DNA from: Candidatus Poribacteria bacterium
Lineage (GTDB): Bacteria > Poribacteria > WGA-4E > WGA-3G
NCBI GenBank assembly: GCA_965232545.1
Contig: OZ246979.1
Span: 4,623,521 to 4,687,520, forward strand
DNA length: 64,000 nucleotides
Reading direction: 5' to 3'
The position numbers were made by a program, and so were the translations under genes. Shown piece after piece: positions 2,030 through 62,125 of this stretch. The notes under the pieces were generated by a model. That model made no database searches, was not told the origin of the DNA, and saw nothing but the letters and a program-made list of their open reading frames with translations. Within the stretch, counting starts at the first letter, position 1. Each line of letters begins with the position of its first letter.

Positions 2030-5000
2030 ATGGCTAAAGAAAAGGTAAGTGATGTGAAGGACGGTAAAAACAGAACTTCATTGATGGAATTGGAAGGCAG
2101 TAAGAAGGGACTGGAAGGTTGGAAAGTTGGAAGGTTGGGGGGCATCCATTCTTCCATTCTTCCATTCTTCCAACCAAGTTCTTCCACGTGGGTAGGCAGG
2201 GATGTCCTGTTGCTACTTGTTGTCCTAAGCTTGTTATCACCTTGTGTTGCGTGGTCTCAAAGTTTTGGAAAAAACAAGATTACCGATCAACGCTTCGATT
2301 GGCACATTCACCGGACAGAGCATTTTGATATTCACTACTACCCAAGTGAAGTGAAACTCGTGCCTATTATGGCAGCGATCGCCGAAGAGGCTTACGAGCA
2401 ACACAGCGAAGATTTTGAACATGAATTGCAAGACAGAACACCGCTCATCCTTTACAAATCCCACAAAGACTTTCAGGAAACCAACATAATTCTTCAAGAG
2501 CTTCACGAAGGCATTGGAGGTTTCGCGGAACTCTTTAAACACCGTATCGTTATACCCTTCACCGGATCCTTGGAAGCGTTCCGAGAGGTAATTTTTCACG
2601 AACTCATCCATATTTTCCAATACGATATTATTTATCAAAAACCGCATGCCCGTATCTATAGTGGTGAGTTTCTCTATTCCCCGCCAATCTGGTTTATAGA
2701 GGGGATGGCGGACTATTTTGCAGAAGACAATGACGCGATTGGGGAGATGGTCGTCCGTGATGCCAGCATGAATAACAATGTTGTGCCGCTGCCGCAGCTT
2801 CACAATTTCAACCGTCTCAGTTCACCCTTCGTTGGATATAAGTTGGGACAACTGGCAGTGGCGTATCTCACAGAGACTTATGGACGAGAGAAAATCGCTG
2901 AGATTTTGCAGGGGTTACGACAGAGTCGCACAAAGGACATCGACCATGTTTTCAGAGAGGTTCTCGGGGTAGAACTCGAAGAATTTGATAAGGCGTGGCG
3001 GCAGACAGTCCGAAAACGCTACTGGCCCCTCGTTGAGCATAGGGAATTGCCGGATCTGGTATCGAAGAACCTTACAGAGGAATCTCGATATTCCCATAAC
3101 ATTAAACCGGTCTGGTCACCGAGCGGCGATCTTATCGCTTACGTCACCGGAAATGACGGATTTCTGGAAATTGTCCTCATGTCCGCAAAAACAGGTGAAC
3201 GCATTGAGCGTGTCACGAAGCAGTTTTTCCGTGAGAAATATGAGGAGATCCGAACCGATTTCGGAGGATTTGGAAGAAGCCTCGCATGGGCACCAGATGG
3301 GGACAGGATCGCATTCATCGCTAAACATCACGATGCAAATTATCTCCTTGAAGTCAACATTTTGACTGAGGAACTGACGCAGTACTTCGAGTTGCATTTT
3401 GATAACGTCACTTCACCCGACTACGATGGCAGCGGTGAACGGATCGTCTTTTCTGCACTAAAAGAGGGACAGACGGATCTCTATGTAATCGAATTGCTGA
3501 CGGGTGAAGTGGACAGGCTTACTTTCGATCCATTTAACGATACGCATCCGTCGTGGCACCCAAGAACTGGGGAAATTGTCTATGCGTCCGAACGAGGTGC
3601 CAAAAATCGATTGGTACTGATAAATCTCAGCCAAGGTACGGAACGCATACTCACCGATGGCACCTATAACGCTATCAGTCCAAGCTGGACACCAGACGGA
3701 ACATCGATTCTTTTCTGTTCGGATCGTCAGAGTATTTACGATATACACAAACTTGAAATCGTGGAGAAGGACAGCAATCAGCAGTCAGCAATCAGCAGTC
3801 AGGAAAATAGCAATCAGCAATCAGCAGTCAGCGATCAGCAAGAAAACCTCGTTGCTAATGGTCAAGAACCGAGAGCCGAGGACCGTTCCTCTGATAGCCG
3901 GACAGTTCTCACTGCAGAGCAAGCCGAGAACCATGACAACGAAGAAGTCGTCTCGACTGAAAATGGTAGCACGGAACCTATGGGTTCTCGACCTTTAGAA
4001 GTTGAGTTGACCCGTCTTACGAATATGATGACAGGTTGTTTCAATCCGAGCTTGGCTCCGGATGGTAAACATCTGCTGTTTAGTGCCTATCAGAATGGAA
4101 AATACGATGTTTGTATCATGGAGAGTGCCAAAACGGTTGAGGAAAAAATTGGGGTTTCAAGCGTGTCGGAACCCTCTGTCATTTTGACGGAGGAAGAAGA
4201 AGAAAATTATAGGGTTGCCAAGCGAAAATACAGTACGAGATCTTCTTTTGCTTTAGATGCTATCTTCCCGAATTTCAGTTTCGGTGCGGATGGTATCCTA
4301 AGAAGTACAGTGCAAATCGTCGGCAGTGACATGTTAGGTAACCATCGTATCGGGGTGAGCGTGATGAACCAATCGAGTTACCTCGCACCCGATTTTATCG
4401 CACAATACGGTTTTTTGACACACCGAACTGATGTTGGTGCACTGATTTACAACTATCATGAATACCATATCTTGGGTGGTATACAGAGTAGGCGGGGCAT
4501 TCTACAACGGATTACCGGGCTTGGCGCGTATGTCAATTACCCATTTGACAGGTACCATCGACTCGACTTTGAGTTCTCGATGTACTCGAAGCCGTTTTCC
4601 TTTAACTTCCAAACGCGTGAGGCGTTGGATCCATACGACGATAGAGGCTTGCTCACGATGGGTTCCGTTGCGTTTGTTGGAGATACAACGATGTGGCGGG
4701 AGTGGGCACCTTATACAGGTTCGCGGTACCGTGTTGAACTTGAACAATCCTTCCCCGCACTCGGTAGTGAATTGTCACTAACAAATGTTATTTTTGATGC
4801 GCGACGCTATTTCGGTGTCGGCAGACGATCTACCATTGCGGCGCGATTGTTGCTCGGCGGTAGTTTCGGTGGTGATCGATCTTATTTTTATCTCGGTGGG
4901 ATTGATACGCTACGCGGCTATAATTATGAAGAGTTGGTCGGGACACGCATCGGACTCCTCAATCTTGAAGTCCGTATCCCGTTCATAGATGTGCTTCACT

Positions 5001-5284
5001 TCGGGTGGCCCGCCCCGTGGACGCTCGGTGGGATACGCGGCATAGCCTTCGCAGATTTAGGAGGGGCATGGTCGGATTGGCAATATGGACCGGAGACCCC
5101 TTTCAAAATATTTGTTCGCGATGAAAACGGTGTTCGCCTTGGCGATGTCAAAGCCTCAATCGGTGCTGGACTTCGCTTGCAACTCGGTGTGTTTTCGGTG
5201 GACTTCGCCGCCGCATGGCATACGGATCTGACCAGCATCGAACCCGGTATGAAATACCACCTCGGACTCGGACAAGCTTTTTAA
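2030..5284 (+). CDS. Large outer-membrane protein combining an HExxH motif region, a TolB-like PD40 beta-propeller and a C-terminal Omp85/BamA-type beta-barrel
   Basis: Long ORF. The first ~60 codons translate a GGAAGG/CCTTCC repeat region, so the true start is probably the TTG at ~2210 just before signal peptide LLLLVVLSLLSPCVAWSQ. HELIH sits at ~2590. There are six PD40-like repeats (WSPSGDLIAY, APDGDRIAF, SWTPDGTSILF, LAPDGKHLLFS…). The C-terminus (LGGIDTLRGY…GAGLRLQLGVFSVDFAAAWH…) resembles surface-antigen D15 barrels. Confidence 0.6.
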   Translation: MAKEKVSDVKDGKNRTSLMELEGSKKGLEGWKVGRLGGIHSSILPFFQPSSSTWVGRDVLLLLVVLSLLSPCVAWSQSFGKNKITDQRFDWHIHRTEHFDIHYYPSEVKLVPIMAAIAEEAYEQHSEDFEHELQDRTPLILYKSHKDFQETNIILQELHEGIGGFAELFKHRIVIPFTGSLEAFREVIFHELIHIFQYDIIYQKPHARIYSGEFLYSPPIWFIEGMADYFAEDNDAIGEMVVRDASMNNNVVPLPQLHNFNRLSSPFVGYKLGQLAVAYLTETYGREKIAEILQGLRQSRTKDIDHVFREVLGVELEEFDKAWRQTVRKRYWPLVEHRELPDLVSKNLTEESRYSHNIKPVWSPSGDLIAYVTGNDGFLEIVLMSAKTGERIERVTKQFFREKYEEIRTDFGGFGRSLAWAPDGDRIAFIAKHHDANYLLEVNILTEELTQYFELHFDNVTSPDYDGSGERIVFSALKEGQTDLYVIELLTGEVDRLTFDPFNDTHPSWHPRTGEIVYASERGAKNRLVLINLSQGTERILTDGTYNAISPSWTPDGTSILFCSDRQSIYDIHKLEIVEKDSNQQSAISSQENSNQQSAVSDQQENLVANGQEPRAEDRSSDSRTVLTAEQAENHDNEEVVSTENGSTEPMGSRPLEVELTRLTNMMTGCFNPSLAPDGKHLLFSAYQNGKYDVCIMESAKTVEEKIGVSSVSEPSVILTEEEEENYRVAKRKYSTRSSFALDAIFPNFSFGADGILRSTVQIVGSDMLGNHRIGVSVMNQSSYLAPDFIAQYGFLTHRTDVGALIYNYHEYHILGGIQSRRGILQRITGLGAYVNYPFDRYHRLDFEFSMYSKPFSFNFQTREALDPYDDRGLLTMGSVAFVGDTTMWREWAPYTGSRYRVELEQSFPALGSELSLTNVIFDARRYFGVGRRSTIAARLLLGGSFGGDRSYFYLGGIDTLRGYNYEELVGTRIGLLNLEVRIPFIDVLHFGWPAPWTLGGIRGIAFADLGGAWSDWQYGPETPFKIFVRDENGVRLGDVKASIGAGLRLQLGVFSVDFAAAWHTDLTSIEPGMKYHLGLGQAF

Positions 5285-8400: not shown

Positions 8401-8607
8401 GCTGCGACAATGGCAACTGATGACATGGGTGCTGCTGATACTGAGTTTGTGGAAGGGGTTTCTAACCCCGATTCCGTACAAGGACTCATTGAACAAGCAA
8501 ACCGCTATTTCAATGAAGGACAGGATGCGCTACGCGCAGGGAATTGGACGGAATATGGGCGGTATCAGCGACTTTTAAAGGAAACTTTACGGCAACTTAC
8601 TCAATAA
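5416..8607 (+). CDS. UPF0182 family membrane protein
   Basis: 1063 aa. N-terminal TM helices with the LYPDFLWFKVVDYFSVY motif typical of UPF0182 (LYTDWLWF…). ATG directly abuts the CCGCAAGGAATAATTAAAAT module. Confidence 0.6.
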   Translation: MDSRTKRFIITITVLAVIGGLGAIWVSLYPDFLWFKVVDYFSVYTKILTTKIFVGVIVGVCYLAILLTNIALIYRFTPAHLSPAFMGGADFMGGATDNPGDTRKLIYGGLTLLAVLFSVMMGYAASDRWEVYLRYTNAENLAFRAATPIIVEESLNSAEIPVSQLELQAKNIRVGDQINVQVDGTNQDARVEAILDRGDMGAIRLNTPIQIEPGQKAFFTSPARDPIFDKDVAYYVFRMPAERYVCGTLFGIFMLVTIFAVVVYFFHGLITGDTSQFRFRPPFNVKAHLFTLVGLTLLFRAWNYRFAMFDLLYTTNDVVRGGGGYAAMKARLPILYFLIGLTILCALIFIISIFLQRNTLAFGGFAVFLIAGFLGQVYPVAIQRWQVEPRKQVLEADYINYNITATLQAYGLAENTVTEEEYPLTEQLSYDDIRSPENASVFNSIRLWDWRPLRRTFRQLQELRTQYDFNDVDIDRYVVDGEIRQVMLSGRELNINELPAEIRNDWYKQTYTYTHGYGAVVSPVNEIENGKPNMYIQGLPPIDYSEQWQHRFSETPGPRIYYGERTDRYVIVHPERSQGLEFDYPQEGQQYAEYAYQGKGGVQLNSFWRKMVYMLKFDNEINFVLPGEISSASRILYERNIKNRIQKIAPFLRYDGDPYIILHNGRLVWMIDAYTITHRYPYSVSMREFVSERRRQIANAQRDNEPWGNYIRNSVKVVVDAYDGTVDFYVMEREQDPIAECYRKIFPSLFKPFEEMPEELKAHIRYPTSMFLIQARVYRDYHMKDPVTFYAGEDKWEIGRELYDNTDAQTRQASAPPQPRSPFAPQQVPQNSGANGQPVEPYYVVIRLPGQEQSEFMLMLPFTPLNKPNLTAWLAARCDLPQYGQLLVYRFPKGKQIAGPMQVENFISQEPEISQQISLWNTQGSRVLRGNLLILPVNNSLLYVEPIYIQSEDEKTAIPELRRVVIGYGNEVVWGETLEEALVKMFGQGTRGQTTAATMATDDMGAADTEFVEGVSNPDSVQGLIEQANRYFNEGQDALRAGNWTEYGRYQRLLKETLRQLTQ

Positions 8608-8722
8608 CCATCAGCCATCAGCGGTCAGCCATCGGCAAGAAACCTATTTACTGGCGGTTTCCGATAGGTGCCAACCATTCCCGCTGTAAGCTGACTGCCG
8701 ATAGCCGACGGCTAATAACTAT
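8608..8722. repeat. Composite palindromic 7-bp-repeat element immediately upstream of the DUF5069-like gene
   Basis: Left arm CCATCAG-CCATCAG-CGGTCAG-CCATCGG (8608-8640). ~45-nt spacer. Right arm in opposite orientation CTGACTG-CCGATAG-CCGACGG (8690-8712). Confidence 0.55.
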
Positions 8723-8739
8723 TAAAGGAGGTGATACAG

Positions 8740-8985
8740 ATGGCTCTCGATTGGAAACCACGGCACCGGGATATGATTATTGGGGATATCCCATGGTTAG
8801 CCAGAATCAGTGATAAAGCCAATGCAAAACTGCAGGGCATCCTCGGCGAATATATCTACCCGTGACCGCAAGATAAGTTGTTCCTGGAGGAACACGAGAT
8901 AAGTGCTGAGAAATTCACTGATATGGTGAAAAATAATCCCTCAGACGAAGAAATGATTGCCGCTATGAAGAAATTGGATAGTTAG
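8740..8985 (+). CDS. DUF5069-like small protein with an in-frame TGA (candidate selenocysteine) at 8863-8865
   Basis: Strong SD AAAGGAGG at 8725-8732. ATG at 8740. Codon 42 is TGA within GEYIYP-TGA-PQDKLFLEEH, where I expect Cys (family memory GEYIYPCP). The frame stays open to TAG at 8983-8985 (81 aa total). A 6-bp stem-loop TGTTCC-TGGA-GGAACA at 8879-8894 starts 14 nt after the TGA. Confidence 0.45.
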
Positions 8986-8990
8986 TTTAA

Positions 8991-9040
8991 TAGCAGTCAG
9001 TGGTCAGCAAACCCGCTTTGCTGCTGGCAGCTGACTGCCA
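8991..9040. repeat. Palindromic 7-bp-repeat element downstream of the DUF5069-like gene
   Basis: GCAGTCAGTGGTCAGCAAA-cccgc-TTTGCTGCTGGCAGCTGACTGC, an imperfect hairpin built from GTCAG / CTGAC heptads. Confidence 0.55.
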
Positions 9041-9240
9041 TTAACACTGGAATCTATTTTGGCGGGTTAAAATGTAGGAGCGACCTGTAGTTCGCGTCGA
9101 ACACGGAAACCTTTATTGCACAGATCGTGATACTTATCCGTGATAGCACCCACAACCTAAAGGTTGGGGAAACCTCGGCTTCGTCGCGACTGCGGTTTTC
9201 TCAAAGAGATTACCGTAGACAGGGGCTTTAGCGGCGGAGT

Positions 9241-9280
9241 GGTAAGGTAAAATTAAAAATCCGCAAGGAAAGTCTAAAAA
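9241..9280 (+). promoter_or_regulatory. Tandem double copy of the upstream module before pheA
   Basis: GGTAAGGTAAAATTAAAAAT-CCGCAAGGAAAGTCTAAAAA-TTG. Confidence 0.5.
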
Positions 9281-10348
9281 TTGGATTTAACAAAGTACCG
9301 AGACCAAATCAACGAGATTGACGACCAAATTTTGGCACTGCTGCAGAAACGGGCTGAAGTTTCCAAGCAGGTCGGTGCGATGAAAGCAAAAACAGGCATT
9401 GCAGAGGTCTATGTTCCGCATCGGCAGAAGCAGATTATTGAACGTTTGAAGGAACAAAATCACGGCAGATTCCCTGAGTCCGCGCTTGAGGCGATCTGGA
9501 CCGAGATTTTATCTGCGTCCCGCTCCTTGCAGGATCCGGAGCGGGTAGCCTTCCTCGGACCGGTTGGCAGTTTCGGACACCTGGCGGCGCTGTCACATTT
9601 CGGGACGTCAACAGAGTTTATTCCTGTCCGCCCACAGGTTGACATTTTTACTGAGGTGGAATCTGGTAGAGCGGACTACGGTGTGGTGGCTATTGAAAAT
9701 TCGGCACAAGGGACTGTGCGTGATGTTTTGGAACGCTTCCAGCGCACACCGTTGTGGATTTGCGCGGAGACATTCCAACCGATAAAACAGCACCTTTTAT
9801 CAAGGTCACCGCTCGAGGAAATTCGGTGCGTCTACTCGCATCCGCAACCTTTCGCGCAATGTAAGACTTGGTTAAAGCGACATCTCGGTGGTGCTGAGCA
9901 GATCGAGGTCATTAGTACGTCTGAGGCGGCGGAACGCGCTGCACAAGAACCGTCAGCAGCTGCGATTGCGAGTGAACTTGCAAGCGAAATTTATCAGGTT
10001 CCAATCATCGCAAACTCCATTATGGATGACCCTGATAACACAACCCGCTTCTTTGTGATCGGAAAGCACATTCCAGACCCAAGCGGGCACGATCGGACTT
10101 CGTTGTTTTTCGCTATTCCGGACACGGTTGGGGCACTACACCAAGCCTTGGGTATTGTAGAGAAGGCGCAGTTAAATCTGAGTTATTTAGAATCTTTGCC
10201 GTCGCGAGACAAACCGTGGGAATATATTTTCTTTACTGAGATGGAGGGTCATATTGCCGACGAGCGCGTCATCGTGGCATTTGAGCAGCTTGAAGAATTG
10301 TGTCGGCACGTCAATGTCCTCGGATCCTATCCACGCGGAACGTTTTAA
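9281..10348 (+). CDS. pheA: Bifunctional chorismate mutase / prephenate dehydratase
   Basis: TTG start directly after a tandem double copy of the upstream module. CM domain (LDLTKYRDQINEIDDQILALLQKRAE), PDT domain (ESLPSRDKPWEY motif) and a C-terminal ACT domain. Confidence 0.85.
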   Translation: MDLTKYRDQINEIDDQILALLQKRAEVSKQVGAMKAKTGIAEVYVPHRQKQIIERLKEQNHGRFPESALEAIWTEILSASRSLQDPERVAFLGPVGSFGHLAALSHFGTSTEFIPVRPQVDIFTEVESGRADYGVVAIENSAQGTVRDVLERFQRTPLWICAETFQPIKQHLLSRSPLEEIRCVYSHPQPFAQCKTWLKRHLGGAEQIEVISTSEAAERAAQEPSAAAIASELASEIYQVPIIANSIMDDPDNTTRFFVIGKHIPDPSGHDRTSLFFAIPDTVGALHQALGIVEKAQLNLSYLESLPSRDKPWEYIFFTEMEGHIADERVIVAFEQLEELCRHVNVLGSYPRGTF

Positions 10349-10550: not shown

Positions 10551-10590
10551 CCGTAAGGAAAAATTAAAAATCCGCAAGGTGCAATTAAAA
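10551..10590 (+). promoter_or_regulatory. Tandem double copy of the upstream module, with the queG GTG start embedded
   Basis: CCGTAAGGAAAAATTAAAAAT-CCGCAAG-GTG-CAATTAAAAA. Confidence 0.45.
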
Positions 10591-11735
10591 AGCGAATTCA
10601 TAAGCGGGCAAACGAACTTGGATTTGAACTCGTCGGAATCACACCCGCCACGCAGAGTGAAACGATTGAACGGTATCGGCGGTGGATAGAAAGCGGGTAC
10701 GCTGGGGAGATGAACTATCTTGAAAAGCATCTTTCCCTTAAGACAGATGTCCGTCGACTTCTATCAGAGGCGAAATCTGTTATCAGTCTCGCGATGAATT
10801 ATTATACGCTTGATCCACCGAAGGCACTCACACAGGATCCGGGACGTGGACAAATCTCCCGCTACGCGTGGGGTGATGATTATCACGAACTTATTCGTGA
10901 ACGCCTTTTGGAACTCGTCACTTTTATCAAGCAGACCGCTGAAAGCGAATTGAAAACCCGTGTATGTGTAGATACCGCGCCTATTATTGAAAGGGAGTAC
11001 GCACAGAGAGCAGGTATCGGATGGATCGGTAAAAATACGAACTTGATTCATTGGCGTTCCGGTTCTTGGTATTTTCTCGCGGAGGTACTCGTCAGTGTCG
11101 CGTTGGAATCCGACACACCGGACCTTCGTGGGAGTTGTGGCACTTGCACACGTTGTATTGAAGCGTGTCCGACAGACGCAATTATTGAACCGAATCTGCT
11201 TGACTCCCGGCTTTGTATTTCTTATCTGACAATCGAGTTAAAGGAGAGCATACCGAAGGCACTTCGTCCCAAGATCGGTAACTTAATTTTTGGCTGCGAC
11301 ATCTGTCAAGAGGTCTGTCCGTGGAATAGTAAAGCCGTCCCAACGATCGAACCCGCGTTTCAGCCGCGCGATGGGAACCTCGCACCTGAGTTGCTTTCGC
11401 TTGTTGGTATGACGCAGCAAGAGTTTAGTCAGCAATTCAAGGGAAGTCCAGTCAAACGCGCGAAACGTCGAGGATTTTTGCGGAATGTGCTCGTTGCGAT
11501 CGGTAATTGGCGGGCGCGGCGTGCTGTTCCGGCACTCGAAGGTACATTAGCCGACCACGAACCTTTAGTTCGCGGACATGCCGCTTGGGCATTGGGAAGG
11601 ATCGGAGGTGAAACCGCCAAGCGAATATTGCAAACGCGACTCACCGTTGAAACGGATCAGGATGTTATCATTGAAATCCAAGACGCGCTCTTAGAAACAG
11701 AGCAATTATCAAGGAAAGAGGCAAAAAATGCGTGA
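10578..11735 (+). CDS. queG: Epoxyqueuosine reductase
   Basis: In-frame extension upstream of ATG 10710 restores the QueG N-terminus (LGFELVGITPA). The GTG start is embedded in module copy CCGCAAG-GTG-CAATTAAAAA. 4Fe-4S Cys clusters (CGTCTRCIEACP, CDICQEVCPWN). C-terminal HEAT-like repeats. Confidence 0.8.
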   Translation, partial: GAIKKRIHKRANELGFELVGITPATQSETIERYRRWIESGYAGEMNYLEKHLSLKTDVRRLLSEAKSVISLAMNYYTLDPPKALTQDPGRGQISRYAWGDDYHELIRERLLELVTFIKQTAESELKTRVCVDTAPIIEREYAQRAGIGWIGKNTNLIHWRSGSWYFLAEVLVSVALESDTPDLRGSCGTCTRCIEACPTDAIIEPNLLDSRLCISYLTIELKESIPKALRPKIGNLIFGCDICQEVCPWNSKAVPTIEPAFQPRDGNLAPELLSLVGMTQQEFSQQFKGSPVKRAKRRGFLRNVLVAIGNWRARRAVPALEGTLADHEPLVRGHAAWALGRIGGETAKRILQTRLTVETDQDVIIEIQDALLETEQLSRKEAKNA

Positions 11736-15400: not shown

Positions 15401-15543
15401 CGGTCGGCAATCAGTCGTCAGCAGTCAGTTAAAGAGGCTATCCTCATGCGAGAAACTCCTTGTGACTGACAACTATTCCCCTAATTAATAAGGGCTGCTT
15501 CAGAAACACCTATCAATTAGGGAAAGGTGGAGTTAAACACTAA

Positions 15544-23310: not shown

Positions 23311-24750
23311 TTTGTCCGAAATGCGATATGATTCAGGTATCATGTTGGCAGACATGCTAAGCATTGTCGCTTGACAATGTGTCTGCCACCTACTTAGCAG
23401 GGGTTAAAAGCATGATACATGAAAGTCCATGAAAACAGAAACATACGAGTTCTACCATCAATCTAACTTGATACAGATCGGCAATTTGATTGACGATTTG
23501 CATGGTGTGCATGTTCACCTTTTGATGTTGCAGAGACGCTATTATCGTATCTATGGGAAATATGCGTCCTTTGCCCGCATCTGCAATCATATCACGAAGT
23601 TAAAACAGCGGACGAAACCGCATTGGAATCAACTGCCGAGTCAGGTCCTCCAACAAGTCGCAAAGCGTATTCACTTGGGATACGAAAAGTTCTTTGACAA
23701 CCTTAAGGATCGCAAAGCCGGTAAAACAAAACGTAAAATCGGTAGACCGAAAATCAAGCCGAATCATAAATATAACTCACTGACGTTCACACAAGCAGGT
23801 TTCAAATTAGAAGGCAATCGGTTGAAAATCAACTGTCTCGGTAAATCCTTCACATTTTGGAAACACCGCGAGTGGACGGGGCGTATCAAAACCGTCACAA
23901 TCAAGCGTGACCCCGTAGGCGACTACTATCTCTACATCACGTGTGAGGACTGTGAACCTTCCGAGAAACTCTCTTTGACCGGTAATGTGGCAGGGGCGGA
24001 CTTCGGAATGAAAACATTTCTCACACTTTCAGACGGGACGAAAATAGATTCGCCAGAATTCTATAAACAAGGTCTCAACGCAATCCGTTCAGCAAACAAG
24101 GCACTCTCCCGCAAGCAAAAGGGTTCAACTGCATGGTATCGTGCAAAGTGGCATTTCGCCCGTGTTCATAAGGAAATCGCCAATAAGAGACGCGATTGGT
24201 TCTTCAAATTGGCCCTTCGGCTTGTGCGAAAGTATGATACGATTGCGATAGAGACCTTGAACCTTGAGGGGATGAAACGCCTCTGGGGACGCAAGGTCTC
24301 TGATATTGCCTTCGGTGAGTTTGCTCTCATCCTGCAATGGACGTGTGCGAAATATGGTAAAACTTTCTTGAAAGCGGGACGTTGGGAAGCCACGACAAAA
24401 CCGTGTCGGACTTGTGGACATCACAATGAAAATCTAACACTCCAAGATAGGCAGTGGATATGCCCTGACTGTGGTTCACACCATGATAGGGACGTAAATG
24501 CTGCTATCAACATTTTGCAGGCTGGGGTACCCGCGTAACAATGCGCGATAAAGCCGTTGGATCACAACTTCGTGAGTGTGGCGGAGACGGAATAATAGCC
24601 TGCGGGTGGAGCGACAGTCAGACGGTGGACTCTCTGAGAAAACCGCAGTTGCTATGAAACCGAAGCCTACGCCTTTAGGCGTTGGGTAGTATCACAAAGC
24701 GAGTATATGGGGCATTCACCGCACGACTGATGGAGGTGAATCATGGCATA
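23310..24750 (+). mobile_element. IS200/IS605-family element carrying tnpB only (IS1341-like); boundaries approximate
   Basis: Left-end region has promoter-like TTGACA…TATGAT and hairpin GGCAGACA…TGTCTGCC (23362-23401). Structured sequence for ~200 nt after the tnpB stop, consistent with a right end / omega-RNA scaffold. No tnpA seen. Confidence 0.55.
23429..24538 (+). CDS. tnpB: TnpB (IS605 OrfB) RNA-guided endonuclease-type transposon protein
   Basis: RuvC-I (GADFGMKTF), RuvC-II (IAIETLNLEGM), RuvC-III (HHDRDVNAAINI) and a CxxC…CxxC zinc finger (CRTCGHHN…CPDCGSHH) are all intact. Confidence 0.8.
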   Translation: MKTETYEFYHQSNLIQIGNLIDDLHGVHVHLLMLQRRYYRIYGKYASFARICNHITKLKQRTKPHWNQLPSQVLQQVAKRIHLGYEKFFDNLKDRKAGKTKRKIGRPKIKPNHKYNSLTFTQAGFKLEGNRLKINCLGKSFTFWKHREWTGRIKTVTIKRDPVGDYYLYITCEDCEPSEKLSLTGNVAGADFGMKTFLTLSDGTKIDSPEFYKQGLNAIRSANKALSRKQKGSTAWYRAKWHFARVHKEIANKRRDWFFKLALRLVRKYDTIAIETLNLEGMKRLWGRKVSDIAFGEFALILQWTCAKYGKTFLKAGRWEATTKPCRTCGHHNENLTLQDRQWICPDCGSHHDRDVNAAINILQAGVPA

Positions 24751-36851: not shown

Positions 36852-36987
36852 GAATAGCCGTTGGCAATCAGGTCGTTTTTTTTCTTCCGAAAAAAAACTT
36901 TCAGTGGTCAGTAAATCATTACGTCAGTTGCAAACGATTTTCACCGCTACACGATCCTCTTTGCTGACTGCTGACTGCCGACCGCTG

Positions 36988-39465
36988 ATGGCTTCTTTGC
37001 TAACGGTTATCTTCTGCATTGTCGTGTTCGTCCTACCAGTGAGGAGCGATCAAATTCCGATTGCGGTATCTGGTGAACCGAGAGCGACACTTCAGGTCGG
37101 CGCGAACGCCTCGGAACAGGAACAGTTCGCCGCCGCCGAAATCCAATCTTTTATCCAACAATTCACAGGTGCCAAACTCGACATCCGTACCAATCGTCAA
37201 CCAACGGAGACACAAACGGTGATTGTGCTTGGCACCCCAAGCTCGAATCCGACGATAGCAGGGTTACAGGCGAACGTGGAACTGGCGTTGGCAAAAGAAC
37301 TCGGAGACGAAGGCTATCGTATCAAAACGGTAGAGGTCGGCACAGAGATCGTCATTGTTGTGACAGCGCATACCGAGAGAGGCGTGGTCTATGGCGCGTA
37401 TGCCTTCATTGAAAACTGTATTACGGCGTTGACGGGTTTAAAGCCTGTCCATCCAGAGTTACCCGTCGCCAAAGCACAAGCACTGCTCGTGCCGTTCATG
37501 AACGAGACTTCATCACCATTTTATCCGGTGCGTGCTGTCTTGGAGATAGAGGATCCGGATTGGCTTGCACGCCACCGTATCAACATGAGTGGTGGCGAAG
37601 GCGTTTGGACAGGCACAGGTATTGAAGATGGGTTCGGGACGGCGTTTAAATATGTGGATGCCCCCGCGTTTGAAGCTTTGCAGGATGAACCGATAGGACA
37701 GCGGCGAGAACGCATCGCAGTGCTACAAAATCGGTTTGATGCACTCGAACGGCGTGGCATTGATGCCTATCTTTTCATGTATGTAACTGGCGAACCGACA
37801 GAGGCACTGATTCAACAGCGTCCCGATGTTCTTGGACCGAGGGTGCTTTACGGGGCTTCTCGGAATGAGGTATCTTATCGTCCGTTCTGCTGGTCAAAAC
37901 CCGCGTTTCATACGCTTGCGAGGGAACTGACACAGTCGATCGTGCGCGCCTATCCTGCGCTTGCCGGTTTTCATCTACGTTCTTGGGGGCATGAGACACG
38001 CGCATGTGATTGTCCTGACTGTGGTGATAGGACGGAACAGGGACAAGCAAAACTTTGGCAAGTCTACTTTACGATTATCAACGCTGCTCGCGAAGTGCGT
38101 CCGGACTTCAAATTTTATATCTCCGGGTATGACAGCAGTTGGCTCAAGGATGCCGCTGGCGTTTATGCACAGCAGCTGCCGAAAGGAACTATTTTCTCGC
38201 GGAAATGGGGCGCAGATGGCGAACCCGTCGCGAGCGCAGGCTTACCTATCCCACAAGTCAGGGCACTCGGAGAAATCGGGCATCGCTTTATAGTCCTTTC
38301 GCATGAAGTAGAGGAGGTGATGCCGCTCTGGATGCTCGAGAGTGATCTGTTCGTGCAAGGTGTTCGGCAACTTGCCAATAACCCCGAGGTCATCGGTCTC
38401 GGTGGGTTTACTGTCCAAGGCGCGACACAAGGGTTAGGGTACCTCGATCGCCTTGTCAGTGCAAGCCTTAATTGGGATATCAACCTTGATCATTATCAAC
38501 TCCTCCGAAACGAGTTGATTGCCCGGTACGGCACCGAAGCCGCGCCACATATTCTGAATGCCTTGCGGGTGAACGGATGGAACATGGCAAGTTATTTCAC
38601 GGATTATGCGGGATCCTTGACTGTAGGTGGCACTTATGGCAGCGGATCCGCCGGACTCGCAACGCGGTTCTGGACATTGATTGGACCACGGGCTGTTGAA
38701 GATACGTTGGCTATCCCGGAACTGGAGATTGCGAAACTCGCTGTGGACCGGTTCACGGCACTTTTGGCACCACAACAGCAGGCGGCAAACGAGATACGAG
38801 TAGCAAGTGAGATCGCAGAGCCTTTTGATCTGGAAGCAACCGAGGATTTACGCGATGCCCTCCACTTAATGGAACTGTGGGTCCTGTTCTTTGAAAGTCG
38901 AGCCAAGTTGGTAGAAGCGATAGCACTCGGCTATGAGCCTGGAACAGAGCAGGCAATCCGTGCCAAAATCACGAGTGCAATAGAATTTTCAAAGTCCATA
39001 CAACCACATATCAAAGGAATTGAGGAATTTATCCCACTCTTCGGGTATTCGCATCGGACGATTGAAGCGGAGTTACTGAGTACCTTAAACACAGAAGTCG
39101 CTTGGTTAACGAGTTTCGATTATAAGACGCTCCAGAAACATGATGAGGGCTTCTCACCAGAGGAAACCCCTTACCGAATTTGGGATGTTCATAACTTCCC
39201 GAATCCTCTGAAAGAAGAAACAACATTTACCTATCAGTTATCACTGGATTCAGATGAAGTCTCTATCACGATTTATGCTACATCCGGACGGGTTGTAAAT
39301 GTCTTGAAAGGGGCTTCTGGAAACGAAGGCTACAACGAGTTTATGTGGGATGCACGAGACGCTGACGGTCTATTACTTGCCAATGGTGTCTATTTTTTCA
39401 GGATACGTGCTGTCGCGGGAGACCAGACAGCACAGACCCTCGGACGCTTAGCAGTGTTGAGATAG
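36988..39465 (+). CDS. Large secreted protein with T9SS C-terminal sorting domain
   Basis: Start chosen at signal peptide MASLLTVIFCIVVFVLPVRS (36988). ATG 36829 upstream would read through an intergenic 7-bp-repeat element. C-terminal FPNPLKEETTFTYQLSL…GVYFFRIRAVAGDQ…LAVLR is a T9SS CTD. Confidence 0.6.
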   Translation: MASLLTVIFCIVVFVLPVRSDQIPIAVSGEPRATLQVGANASEQEQFAAAEIQSFIQQFTGAKLDIRTNRQPTETQTVIVLGTPSSNPTIAGLQANVELALAKELGDEGYRIKTVEVGTEIVIVVTAHTERGVVYGAYAFIENCITALTGLKPVHPELPVAKAQALLVPFMNETSSPFYPVRAVLEIEDPDWLARHRINMSGGEGVWTGTGIEDGFGTAFKYVDAPAFEALQDEPIGQRRERIAVLQNRFDALERRGIDAYLFMYVTGEPTEALIQQRPDVLGPRVLYGASRNEVSYRPFCWSKPAFHTLARELTQSIVRAYPALAGFHLRSWGHETRACDCPDCGDRTEQGQAKLWQVYFTIINAAREVRPDFKFYISGYDSSWLKDAAGVYAQQLPKGTIFSRKWGADGEPVASAGLPIPQVRALGEIGHRFIVLSHEVEEVMPLWMLESDLFVQGVRQLANNPEVIGLGGFTVQGATQGLGYLDRLVSASLNWDINLDHYQLLRNELIARYGTEAAPHILNALRVNGWNMASYFTDYAGSLTVGGTYGSGSAGLATRFWTLIGPRAVEDTLAIPELEIAKLAVDRFTALLAPQQQAANEIRVASEIAEPFDLEATEDLRDALHLMELWVLFFESRAKLVEAIALGYEPGTEQAIRAKITSAIEFSKSIQPHIKGIEEFIPLFGYSHRTIEAELLSTLNTEVAWLTSFDYKTLQKHDEGFSPEETPYRIWDVHNFPNPLKEETTFTYQLSLDSDEVSITIYATSGRVVNVLKGASGNEGYNEFMWDARDADGLLLANGVYFFRIRAVAGDQTAQTLGRLAVLR

Positions 39466-40231: not shown

Positions 40232-41332
40232 ATGCTGCGTATATGTACATGTCTGACGCTCTTACTTTCGATAATCGGTTGTAAATCGCAAACTTTGCAG
40301 GAACATCTTTTAGAACCGCCACCACCGCTCATCAATTTTGCGCTGAGCCGAAATGGGGCAATCGCGGATGCTTCACAATCCGTTCCAAACCATCGCGCAG
40401 CAGAGATAATTGATGGTGATACTAACTCTGAGACGTGGGATGAAGGCAGTGGATGGGGGAGTAGTTTAGAGCATCTGCGGACCTCAGATCTTAACAAGCG
40501 TTCTTATGTATCCGTGACGCTCGCTAAACCGGTCGATATTCGTAAAATTGTTATGTGGACGATCGACTCCGAGAAATATCCTGCACCGCAATTTGGGTTG
40601 AAGGACTATCGGATTGAGTATTGGCACGGCACCGGTTGGGGACTTATTCCATCGGGTGATACGAAAGACAAGCAGTATACAGCGCGAGATAATACCAAAG
40701 GTAAGCGGGTTCATGAAGTCCGCCAGCGCCTAATAGCCAGCAAGGTCCGGCTCGTTCCTGTTTCTTCGAATGATACGGTCCGCAATTACCAACACATGGC
40801 AGGCAAGCGACCTGTATATGAGGTGGAAGGCACTGCAAGAGTTATGGAATTGGAAATTTGGGGGTATGCCGCACCGGAAGTGCATACACTCAAACAGATT
40901 GCACAAGGGATCCCGCCAGAATCAATGGCGCATCCTGTAGCAACAGAGACACAGAAAGGTGAAAATCAAACCGAACCGACGATCAAAGAGATTATTCAGC
41001 GCGTCTTAAACCGATATGAACTCGGATACGACATGGCGGACCTAACGGAGGTTATGTCCTGTTTTTCAGAGGTGTATCACTCCAATGGTCGCACATATCA
41101 AGACGTTAAAACAAAGGTGTCCGAGTTTTTTGAAGTTTATCATCAGATTGATATGACACTGACCAACATTGACATCCATCCGAACATAGTTGATGATACG
41201 GCGATTGTAACGGGTGGCTACACGTTGCAATATGCCCCGAAAGTGAACGGTCAGGTTGAACAGACATCTGGCAAATTGACGTTGGTTTTCGCGAATGAAG
41301 CGGAAACATGGCGCATTATCCGGGCAGAATAA
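40232..41332 (+). CDS. Lipoprotein with discoidin (F5/8 type C)-like and NTF2-like (SnoaL/DUF4440) domains
   Basis: SD AAAGGAGG. Start MLRICTCLTLLLSIIGC (lipobox). A galactose-binding-like segment. C-terminal NTF2-like ~120 aa. Confidence 0.5.
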   Translation: MLRICTCLTLLLSIIGCKSQTLQEHLLEPPPPLINFALSRNGAIADASQSVPNHRAAEIIDGDTNSETWDEGSGWGSSLEHLRTSDLNKRSYVSVTLAKPVDIRKIVMWTIDSEKYPAPQFGLKDYRIEYWHGTGWGLIPSGDTKDKQYTARDNTKGKRVHEVRQRLIASKVRLVPVSSNDTVRNYQHMAGKRPVYEVEGTARVMELEIWGYAAPEVHTLKQIAQGIPPESMAHPVATETQKGENQTEPTIKEIIQRVLNRYELGYDMADLTEVMSCFSEVYHSNGRTYQDVKTKVSEFFEVYHQIDMTLTNIDIHPNIVDDTAIVTGGYTLQYAPKVNGQVEQTSGKLTLVFANEAETWRIIRAE

Positions 41333-41369
41333 CCCACGATTTCAAACTGCGGCGACAAAGGATCTGAAA

Positions 41370-42194
41370 ATGGTACAAGAGCAGTCCAATCTTTGGGCAA
41401 AATCATACATCAATGATGGCTATTTACTGCTTCCAGATATCATTACACTGGAAGAATGTAATGACCTGAAAGCAGAGATGCTAAAAATATTCCGTGGAGA
41501 TTACCCCTGTGAGGCGATCCCACCGATGCCGGAGACGGCAAGCGAAATGGAAGTTTTGGATAGAATCATGTGTGTTGGCGAACCACATGTCTTTAGTCCC
41601 TTAATTCGGCGTTATATTGAACATCCAAAAATCTGTGAAGTCCTTCGGACGATTGTTGGGGCACACATCCCATTTTGGGAGGGTGGTGTGAAATGTATGC
41701 AGTCGATGATGTTGAGCAAAGTACCGGGACATACGGGGAACCCATGGCATCAGGACGAACACCCGATTCCGACGCGTGATCGATCGCTGCTCGGTGTGTG
41801 GATTACATTAGATGATGCCACAGTTGAAAACGGTTGTCTCTGGGTTTTACCCGATAGCCACCGCTCTGGTGTAATTTATGACCGTTTCCCACACGACAAA
41901 CGCCATGAATTCGACAGTTGTCACGAAGCAGCCGGGTTTGATGACACCGGCGAAATCCCGATTGAGATGGCAGCCGGTAGCGTTCTCTTTTTCAACGGCT
42001 ACCTTTTACACCGTTCCAAGAAGAATCGGAGCGATACATTTCGGCGTATCCTTGTGAGCCACTATTGCTCAACAGCGTCGTGGTTAGGCTGGAAGGGACA
42101 GCGGAATTATCGCGGCGTTGTTACCGTCGCAGGCGAAGATCCTTACATTGGCGAAGGCTATGTCACACCAAATACCTGGGCACGATGGGAGTAG
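41370..42194 (+). CDS. PhyH family Fe(II)/2OG oxygenase, paralog C
   Basis: PWHQDEHP (HxD) and FFNGYLLHRS (distal His). Start shortened to MVQEQ… after GGATCTGAAA-ATG. Confidence 0.65.
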   Translation: MVQEQSNLWAKSYINDGYLLLPDIITLEECNDLKAEMLKIFRGDYPCEAIPPMPETASEMEVLDRIMCVGEPHVFSPLIRRYIEHPKICEVLRTIVGAHIPFWEGGVKCMQSMMLSKVPGHTGNPWHQDEHPIPTRDRSLLGVWITLDDATVENGCLWVLPDSHRSGVIYDRFPHDKRHEFDSCHEAAGFDDTGEIPIEMAAGSVLFFNGYLLHRSKKNRSDTFRRILVSHYCSTASWLGWKGQRNYRGVVTVAGEDPYIGEGYVTPNTWARWE

Positions 42195-42210
42195 TCTAAA
42201 CAACGCACCT

Positions 42211-42237
42211 GACCCAACCGCAAGGAAAGTTAAAAAT
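42211..42237 (+). promoter_or_regulatory. Upstream module copy before PhyH paralog D
   Basis: GACCCAACCGCAAGGAAAGTTAAAAAT-ATG. Confidence 0.5.
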
Positions 42238-43053
42238 ATGAAACTGACAGAACATCAAGTGAATTTTTTCAATACTTTCGGCTATCTCGCAATACCGGGC
42301 ATGTTTTCCCCAAGCGAGATGGAATGGATAATCGAAGAATTTGAGGTATCGATTCAGGAATTTGGAAGCGGCAAAAATCATGATGGCACAAGCCGCACAA
42401 TGTTCGGTGGTCCGATAGAGCATCGGCCTCGACTCTGTACCCTCCTTGATGATGAACGAGTTAAAGGACTCATCGGTGGTGTGATCGGTGCAGACTTCAA
42501 CTACGCTGGGGGCGATGGGAACTATTACACCGGCGATACCGGCTGGCATCCTGATGGAAGCTGGGGACGCCTCTTTGCTTGTAAGGTGGCATTTTATCTC
42601 GATCCTTTGACGAGAGACACAGGCTGCTTACGGATCATTCCCGGTAGCCAGAATCCGGCGCACTTCGTCAGAGCCGGAAAAATCGATCCAAATCAATCAG
42701 AGGCGTTATACGGTATACCGCCGCGCGATTTTCCAACCAGTGTTGCATTGGAGAGCACACCCGGCGATGTCGTGATCTTCAACCACGACACCTATCACGC
42801 AGCATTTGGGGGTGGGACCCGGAGACGGATGTTCACCATGAATTGCACACAACATTGTACGACCGAGCCAGATTTAGAGACGCTTCATCAGTACTTGAGC
42901 GTCCATTCAGCAGGCGGATATAAAATTGAGACAGGCGCGGGCATGTTTTTCCCAACGATGGTTGACACTGCGGACGCAAAACGACAAATCCATCTCCAGC
43001 AATGTAGTAATATCCATGACGAATTGTTCCCGCAATACGCTCGACGGTCTTAG
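42238..43053 (+). CDS. PhyH family Fe(II)/2OG oxygenase, paralog D
   Basis: Start MKLTEHQ… directly after module copy CCGCAAGGAAAGTTAAAAAT. GWHPDGS (HxD) and TYHAAFGG motifs. Confidence 0.65.
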   Translation: MKLTEHQVNFFNTFGYLAIPGMFSPSEMEWIIEEFEVSIQEFGSGKNHDGTSRTMFGGPIEHRPRLCTLLDDERVKGLIGGVIGADFNYAGGDGNYYTGDTGWHPDGSWGRLFACKVAFYLDPLTRDTGCLRIIPGSQNPAHFVRAGKIDPNQSEALYGIPPRDFPTSVALESTPGDVVIFNHDTYHAAFGGGTRRRMFTMNCTQHCTTEPDLETLHQYLSVHSAGGYKIETGAGMFFPTMVDTADAKRQIHLQQCSNIHDELFPQYARRS

Positions 43054-50500: not shown

Positions 50501-50608
50501 TAGCCGTCAGCGGTCGGCTTGCAGCCATCAGTGACCCTTGTGATAGGTGAAAACGTTCGCAGTACCTACGACGGTTACTGACAACTGACAGCCGATAGCC
50601 GATAGCCA
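50501..50608. repeat. Composite palindromic 7-bp-repeat element
   Basis: CCGTCAG-CGGTCGG…CCATCAG … spacer … ACTGACA-ACTGACA-GCCGATA-GCCGATA. Confidence 0.5.
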
Positions 50609-62080: not shown

Positions 62081-62125
62081 AACCGAGAACTGACAACCGA
62101 CTGCCGATGGCTGACCGCTGACTAC
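62081..62125. repeat. 7-bp-repeat element (right-arm type) with CCTCTT core
   Basis: CCTCTT-AACCGAGAACTGACAACCGACTGCCGATGGCTGACCGCTGAC. Confidence 0.45.

Follow-up and report, generated by a model that had tools for sequence, protein, structure and literature searches.

A DUF5069-family gene of Candidatus Poribacteria with an in-frame UGA and a compact SECIS-type hairpin probably encodes a small selenoprotein

The closest described counterpart of the locus reported here is the intragenic SECIS of the E. coli fdhF type, as represented in the bSECISearch model. In both, an in-frame UGA is aligned with a Cys of homologs, a hairpin with a G in its apical loop ~19 nt away lies in the coding region just past the UGA, and the RNA structure limits codon choice. 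The element described here differs from the fdhF type in being very small, with a 6–7 bp stem, a 4-nt UGGA loop and a lower helix that is not conserved, and in having a core, UUCC-UGGA-GGAA, that is invariant across several phyla. The stem of the fdhF SECIS contains a bulged U, which is possibly required for its function; this bulge is absent from the stem modelled here. A second point of reference is provided by the catalogued small families with a single selenocysteine (Sec), namely DUF1858, DUF166, DUF3179 and GOS_A/B/C, which are likewise DUF-type proteins with Sec in place of a conserved Cys and were likewise recognised by comparative genomics alone. Unlike these, the protein studied here belongs to a different family and has neither a UxxC/CxxU motif nor a thioredoxin-like fold. 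Its P-U-P-x-D motif and predicted all-helical fold also place it outside the thioredoxin-fold, CxxC-type selenoproteins. GOS_A was considered as a possible prior description and was found to be unrelated in sequence. The closest solved structure, PDB 3OMD, is that of an uncharacterised DUF5069 protein from Leptospirillum rubarum, in comparison with which our protein is shorter (the N-terminal ~75 of 133 profile positions) and would have Sec for Cys. Here, we analysed a 64-kb stretch of Candidatus Poribacteria DNA (hereafter, the window) and conclude from sequence comparisons that its gene at 8740–8985 very probably encodes an 81-residue DUF5069 selenoprotein, the UGA of which would be recoded as Sec by the standard bacterial route.

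The gene lies on the forward strand and consists of 81 codons, with the putative Sec at codon 42, followed by a TAG at 8983–8985. A preliminary description of this DNA had proposed a strong Shine-Dalgarno sequence, a clean ATG and a DUF5069-like frame broken only once, by a TGA, and each of these proposals held. The sequence AAGGAGGT upstream of the ATG at 8740, read directly, contains GGAGG at 8727–8731 (+), with a spacer of 8 nt to the start codon; it is kept in the orthologs, where it appears as an in-frame 'KEV' before the Met of over-extended database proteins (P0011–P0014). The sole interruption of the frame is the TGA at 8863–8865, in the context GEYIYP-(TGA)-PQDKLF. With Cys substituted for this stop, the product matched Pfam DUF5069 (PF16798) with an E-value of 7e-14 and a score of 52.6 bits, above the gathering cutoff of 27 bits. 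Because this match is limited to profile positions 4–75 of 133, the window protein represents a short form of the DUF5069 domain. A systematic ORF-TGA-ORF scan of the window yielded this gene and no second selenoprotein gene.

To place the UGA in its family context, homologs were collected with one genome per GTDB species. The scan returned 80 loci from Candidatus Poribacteria, Latescibacterota and Gemmatimonadota, together with single Opitutales, Planctomycetota and Alphaproteobacteria MAGs. Among these species-representative loci, all close homologs, the codon aligned to 8863–8865 (+; motif G-E-Y-I-Y-P-U-P-Q-D) is TGA in 70 of 80 and a Cys codon (TGT or TGC) in the remaining 10, and the ratio of Sec forms to Cys forms across Poribacteria, Latescibacterota and Gemmatimonadota is ~7 to 1. 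Complete Poribacteria and Latescibacterota chromosomes with the TGA form include OZ220722.1, OZ242381.1 and OZ241867.1. For the wider family, 392 DUF5069 members were retrieved at E ≤ 1e-3 when 1.84 billion representative proteins were searched with a profile. The Sec-aligned column, assessed in 184 aligned domains, is occupied by Cys in 103, by Ser in 29 and by an artefactual W in 10, and 20 domains end there. The Cys forms of the wider family carry a YxYPCPxD motif, and Cys is also found at this position in the solved homolog 3OMD. The homolog alignment thus confirms Cys at the aligned column, which the preliminary description had given as YPCP. Tandem DUF5069 proteins with two or three domains were also observed (P0018, P0024, P0027 and P0031; ~430 aa), and in the majority of their repeats the position aligned with Sec is occupied by Ser rather than Cys (YGSGLD). 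Since some paralogous domains have Ser, the residue at the Sec/Cys site appears to be dispensable in some DUF5069 members.

An alternative reading of the codon is a true stop, in which case the locus would be a pseudogene, be misassembled or encode a genuine 41-residue peptide, and the hairpin and the downstream frame would be leftovers or a regulatory or terminator structure. Public annotation agrees with such a reading: the database proteins P0011–P0015 (e.g., L002:10001-10237 and L007:4580-4825), which come from long contigs that include NCBI MAGs, are cut at ...EYIYP and often bear a spurious N-terminal extension in which the Shine-Dalgarno sequence is read as 'KEV'. In addition, the hairpin scores terminator-like on the minus strand. 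However, the identical TGA is present in 70 independent species genomes, and it recurs in independent assemblies with conserved synteny. Moreover, the 39 codons 3′ of the TGA are conserved as protein and align with the Cys homologs and with 3OMD, indicating that P0011–P0015 derive from this gene by truncation at the TGA. Synonymous variation in this region is evident at invariant residues: F+17 is encoded by TTC in 40 sequences and by TTT in 28, D+27 by GAC in 49 and by GAT in 19, and V+21 by four different codons. Between the UGA and the hairpin, the orthologs share no start codon; codon +5 specifies M, L, H, R, S, A or K. Translation of the post-UGA frame, together with this variability, excludes the alternative of a 41-residue product with a separate gene behind it. 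A sequencing error is likewise excluded, because 70 of 80 independent genomes, representing several phyla, have this TGA and the frame downstream of it is conserved at the amino-acid level with synonymous variation. On this evidence, we regard termination at codon 42 as highly improbable.

Protein databases also contain a different version of the gene. The close homologs found in a large protein collection comprise nine proteins with YIYP-W-PQDK, five ending at ...EYIYP and one with Cys (P0010); the Sec forms are therein represented by unnamed proteins only, either truncated or W-containing. The nine ENA/Logan proteins that read YIYPWPQDK (P0001–P0009) are what would be expected if TGA were a sense codon, for Trp or Gly, in this organism. 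Against this, the W residues stand for TGA codons, located on contigs no longer than ~1.2 kb, from which the database protein is not obtained under table 11. W-type proteins (P0001–P0009 and P0017; e.g., L001:460-705) derive from very short ENA/Logan contigs, and the TGA codon was confirmed for L001. Given the TGA codon and this mismatch between contig and protein, the simplest explanation of the W is a gene-caller artefact, in which a code-4 model was picked on a short contig. Furthermore, Cys is what homologs carry at this column, where a genuine Trp is never found. Alternative codes (tables 4 and 25) were also considered for the window and rejected, as TGA serves as an ordinary stop that terminates 8 of the 42 long ORFs, including an amidohydrolase ORF whose Pfam match reaches the last residue before the TGA. 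The probability of a TGA-sense code is, in our view, negligible. Both types of annotation error, the cut at the UGA and the replacement by Trp, have spread into clustered protein databases.

Downstream of the UGA, a 13-nt spacer (8866–8878, +) encodes P-x-D-[KQ], a sequence conserved in Sec forms as well as in Cys forms, and leads to a SECIS-type hairpin at 8879–8894 (+). The stem is formed by 8879–8884 and 8889–8894 (UGUUCC/GGAACA), the apical loop UGGA occupies 8885–8888, and the whole element overlaps the codons of L-F-L-E-E-H. The stem begins 13 nt past the TGA, its first base being the 14th nucleotide downstream; the spacer is 12 nt in orthologs with a 7-bp stem. The core TTCCTGGAGGAA occurs once in the window. 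When the window sequence was folded by itself (8863–8925), the hairpin formed with a z-score of 0.13 relative to shuffled sequences, i.e., it was no more stable than these, and its significance therefore lies solely in the comparative data. Searches against Rfam gave no match, either for the whole window at the gathering threshold or for 8830–8950 at a permissive threshold. A lower helix suggested by some minimum-free-energy folds is not conserved, with 53–85% pairing in its best register.

Comparison of the Sec forms revealed a far more regular structure. In all of them, the hairpin is found at a fixed offset, its loop is invariably UGGA and its core is UUCC/GGAA. Across 50 distinct sequences, 97.1% of the cells of the 7-pair helix are paired, versus 34–72% in slid registers. 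Compensatory changes are seen at three of the seven stem pairs (CG/AU/GC; UA/GU/AU/GC; CG/GC), and none of 500 shuffles reached the observed covariation score.

As F-L-E is conserved at the protein level in Sec and Cys forms alike, and as TTCCTGGAGGAA is intrinsically self-complementary, the hairpin might be regarded as a by-product of the F-L-E-E peptide that lacks any RNA function, with read-through, if any, depending on another signal. Codon usage argues strongly against this idea. In 68 distinct Sec forms, F-L-E-E is encoded by TTC in 66 and by CTG, GAG and GAA in all 68, whereas the equally invariant Leu at −22 is encoded by CTG in 34, TTA in 11, CTC in 9, CTT in 8 and others in the rest, that is, by at least four codons. 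In contrast, the F-L-E-E codons vary freely in six distinct Cys forms, which encode the same or a similar peptide and from which the hairpin is mostly gone. Moreover, codons +5 and +10, which form the outer stem, co-vary as reverse complements and change the amino acids jointly while keeping complementarity (ATG/CAT for M/H, CAC/GTG for H/V and CGC/GCG for R/A). In a variant clade with F-L-E-G, the change of GAA to GGA, and thus of E to G, turns a U-A pair into U·G, so that pairing is kept. We therefore consider a mere coding by-product very unlikely. Rather, the distribution of substitutions shows the hairpin to be an RNA element under selection only in the UGA-containing genes.

The Cys forms illustrate the loss of this element. 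The hairpin has disappeared from the Cys form of Poribacteria KatS3mg115 (L078:3127-3170) and from those of L010–L014. One Latescibacterota Cys form (L019:3136-3180) retains the full stem with a UACA loop in place of UGGA, and this looks like a SECIS fossil left by a recent Sec-to-Cys conversion.

The bSECIS rule that Zhang and Gladyshev are said to have set out in 2005 requires an apical loop 16–37 nt from the UGA and a G within the first two loop bases. Here, the apical loop starts 19 nt past the UGA and has G at position 2, and hence its geometry fits the bSECIS consensus. The preliminary description had pointed to this hairpin, at 14 nt from the TGA, as lying within the SECIS range; we find it to be conserved and covarying, with synonymous sites that are frozen only in the Sec forms. 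Its central suggestion, a candidate selenoprotein with TGA at a Cys site, is likewise supported by the Sec/Cys pairing, the conserved downstream frame and the hairpin taken together.

Based on these findings, we propose a plausible mechanism for expression of the gene. Codon 42, the UGA, would be recoded as selenocysteine as the mRNA is translated. To this end, a presumed SelB–GTP–Sec-tRNASec complex would bind the hairpin 13 nt 3′ of the UGA, inside the coding sequence, and would bring Sec to the ribosome, probably displacing release factor 2. The predicted product would be a small all-helical domain equivalent to the N-terminal half of the 3OMD fold, with Sec placed in a loop just before helix 2, within the motif G-[ED]-Y-x-[YF]-P-U-[PG]-x-D, where it would replace the single conserved Cys of DUF5069. 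The 64-kb window contains no tRNA genes of any kind, and thus no tRNA-Sec, and no tRNA-Sec was detected in 60 related loci. Among the 42 long ORFs, 20 of a size fitting SelA, SelB or SelD were scanned with Pfam, and none of these proteins was found. At a broader scale, most sponge-symbiont bins, from several phyla, contain SelA together with SelB (PMC5649159), and Sec-type group 4 hydrogenases have been reported in Poribacteria MAGs (PMC13582414).

The same SECIS/SelB route could in principle be served by a tRNA-ReC-type tRNA (SelC*) that inserts cysteine. tRNA-ReC-like genes occur in some MAG lineages with SECIS-dependent UGA codons (PMC13582414), and the window contains nothing that separates insertion of Cys from that of Sec. 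Nonetheless, tRNA-ReC is present in a minority of genomes, ~13–17% (PMC13582414), and the retention of a costly UGA and SECIS in 70 of 80 species is hard to explain for Cys, for which TGY suffices, as it does in 10 species. Insertion of cysteine thus appears quite unlikely, and we retain Sec as the residue at position 42.

The preliminary description had also placed the gene between two palindromic repeat elements. Both were found. The upstream imperfect palindrome spans 8598–8721 (arms 8598–8637 and 8690–8721) and is a copy of a dispersed intergenic repeat; the downstream one, at 8987–9044 (arms 8987–9009 and 9022–9044, each of 23 nt, 83% complementary), lies directly past the stop codon. However, they are not specific to this gene, as they belong to a genome-wide repeat. 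The dispersed, heptad-like palindromic element (TCAGYGGTCAGC and its complement) has 14 matches in the window versus 0.42 expected, mostly just past gene ends, with copies at 1940–1958, 3778–3839, 8611–8637, 8992–9044, 15411–15422, 36901–36988, 50507–50518 and 62110–62121. It resembles a REP-like element, and two tandem copies lie within the ORF at 2030–5284. The flanking palindromes are background and stand outside the recoding mechanism. The downstream palindrome (8987–9044) may act as a terminator or as an mRNA-end hairpin; having no T-run, it was not called in a terminator scan.

Several further features of the window were recorded. An exact 19-nt direct repeat, AAATTAAAAATCCGCAAGG, is present at 9250–9268 and 10561–10579 (2 matches versus 0.02 expected). 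The first copy lies just 5′ of pheA, which starts with TTG at 9281, and the second just 5′ of the conserved N-terminus of queG; the two genes may share it for regulation or initiation. In QueG, the ~42 conserved N-terminal residues (10554–10712) lie in frame past a TAA at 10554–10556, and no ATG, GTG or TTG precedes 10710; hence, either queG starts at a non-canonical codon, for example ATT, or its start codon has been lost. At 23429–24538 (+), a 369-residue protein with OrfB_IS605 and Cas12f1-like TNB domains is encoded, a TnpB-type transposon-associated nuclease. Two adjacent ORFs for PhyH-family dioxygenases, at 41295–42194 and 42118–43053 (+), overlap by ~77 nt as listed.

Fold prediction for the window protein gave an all-helical structure with the same fold as the solved member 3OMD, and fold searches for functional relatives returned 3OMD only. 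The Sec motif is P-U-P-x-D, and no second Cys is conserved. Because the single conserved Cys of the family is the residue replaced and no nearby second Cys is conserved, Sec would be a lone centre rather than part of a CxxC-type dithiol; such a centre at residue 42 is most likely redox-active or nucleophilic.

The genes that surround the DUF5069 gene vary from phylum to phylum. In Latescibacterota and Gemmatimonadota, it is directly 3′ of a conserved ~345-residue protein without a Pfam family (46 loci), and an FNR-type NAD-binding oxidoreductase (PF00175) is encoded directly 3′ of the gene in 28 loci. A shared gene arrangement was observed from −1170 to +1020 of the UGA in L022 and 45 other loci of these two phyla; it comprises, in order, genes for a 125-aa and a ~345-aa protein (neither with a Pfam family), the DUF5069 selenoprotein, the PF00175 protein, a GT2 glycosyltransferase and an ArgC-like dehydrogenase. 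In L022, the FNR-type protein is encoded 133–1021 nt past the UGA. The FNR-type NAD(P)-binding neighbour weakly suggests an electron-transfer partner, and the selenol might possibly be serviced by a flavin reductase. The FNR-type neighbourhood is absent from Poribacteria, in which the gene order of the window, UPF0182, DUF5069, pheA and queG, is common to about two dozen loci. Among the loci fetched, the closest (L082) has ~80–83% DNA identity to the window.

We also asked how the family relates to existing catalogues. PF16798 is absent from the 119 prokaryotic selenoprotein families of Table 1 in a compilation of May 2026 (PMC13188914), and NCBIfam release 20 contains no model that matches the window protein at E ≤ 1. 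Within the portion of the literature covered, neither a mention of DUF5069, PF16798 or IPR031849 nor a description of such a selenoprotein family from Poribacteria, Latescibacteria or Gemmatimonadetes was found. As judged from sequence data, the putative DUF5069 selenoprotein is thus an uncatalogued family, and a known kind of gene, one with an intragenic SECIS. We lean towards a fuller interpretation, in which short-form DUF5069 proteins would constitute an unrecognised bacterial selenoprotein family characterised by an unusually small, invariant SECIS (UUCC-UGGA-GGAA), an orphan helical fold with a lone Sec and possible coupling to the adjacent FNR-type reductase.

These results provide a first functional clue to DUF5069, a family with a solved structure (3OMD): its conserved Cys is apparently important enough for most species of three phyla to have upgraded it to Sec. 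The list of ~119 prokaryotic selenoprotein families would gain one member, and Sec usage that had not been catalogued is indicated for phyla of sponge symbionts and sediments. The invariant, compact hairpin, as a minimal element that occurs naturally, would be convenient for studies of how SelB recognises its target in bacteria other than Proteobacteria and Firmicutes. If the proposed reading is true, the lone Sec and its orphan fold would imply redox or nucleophilic chemistry beyond that of the thioredoxin-like selenoproteins.
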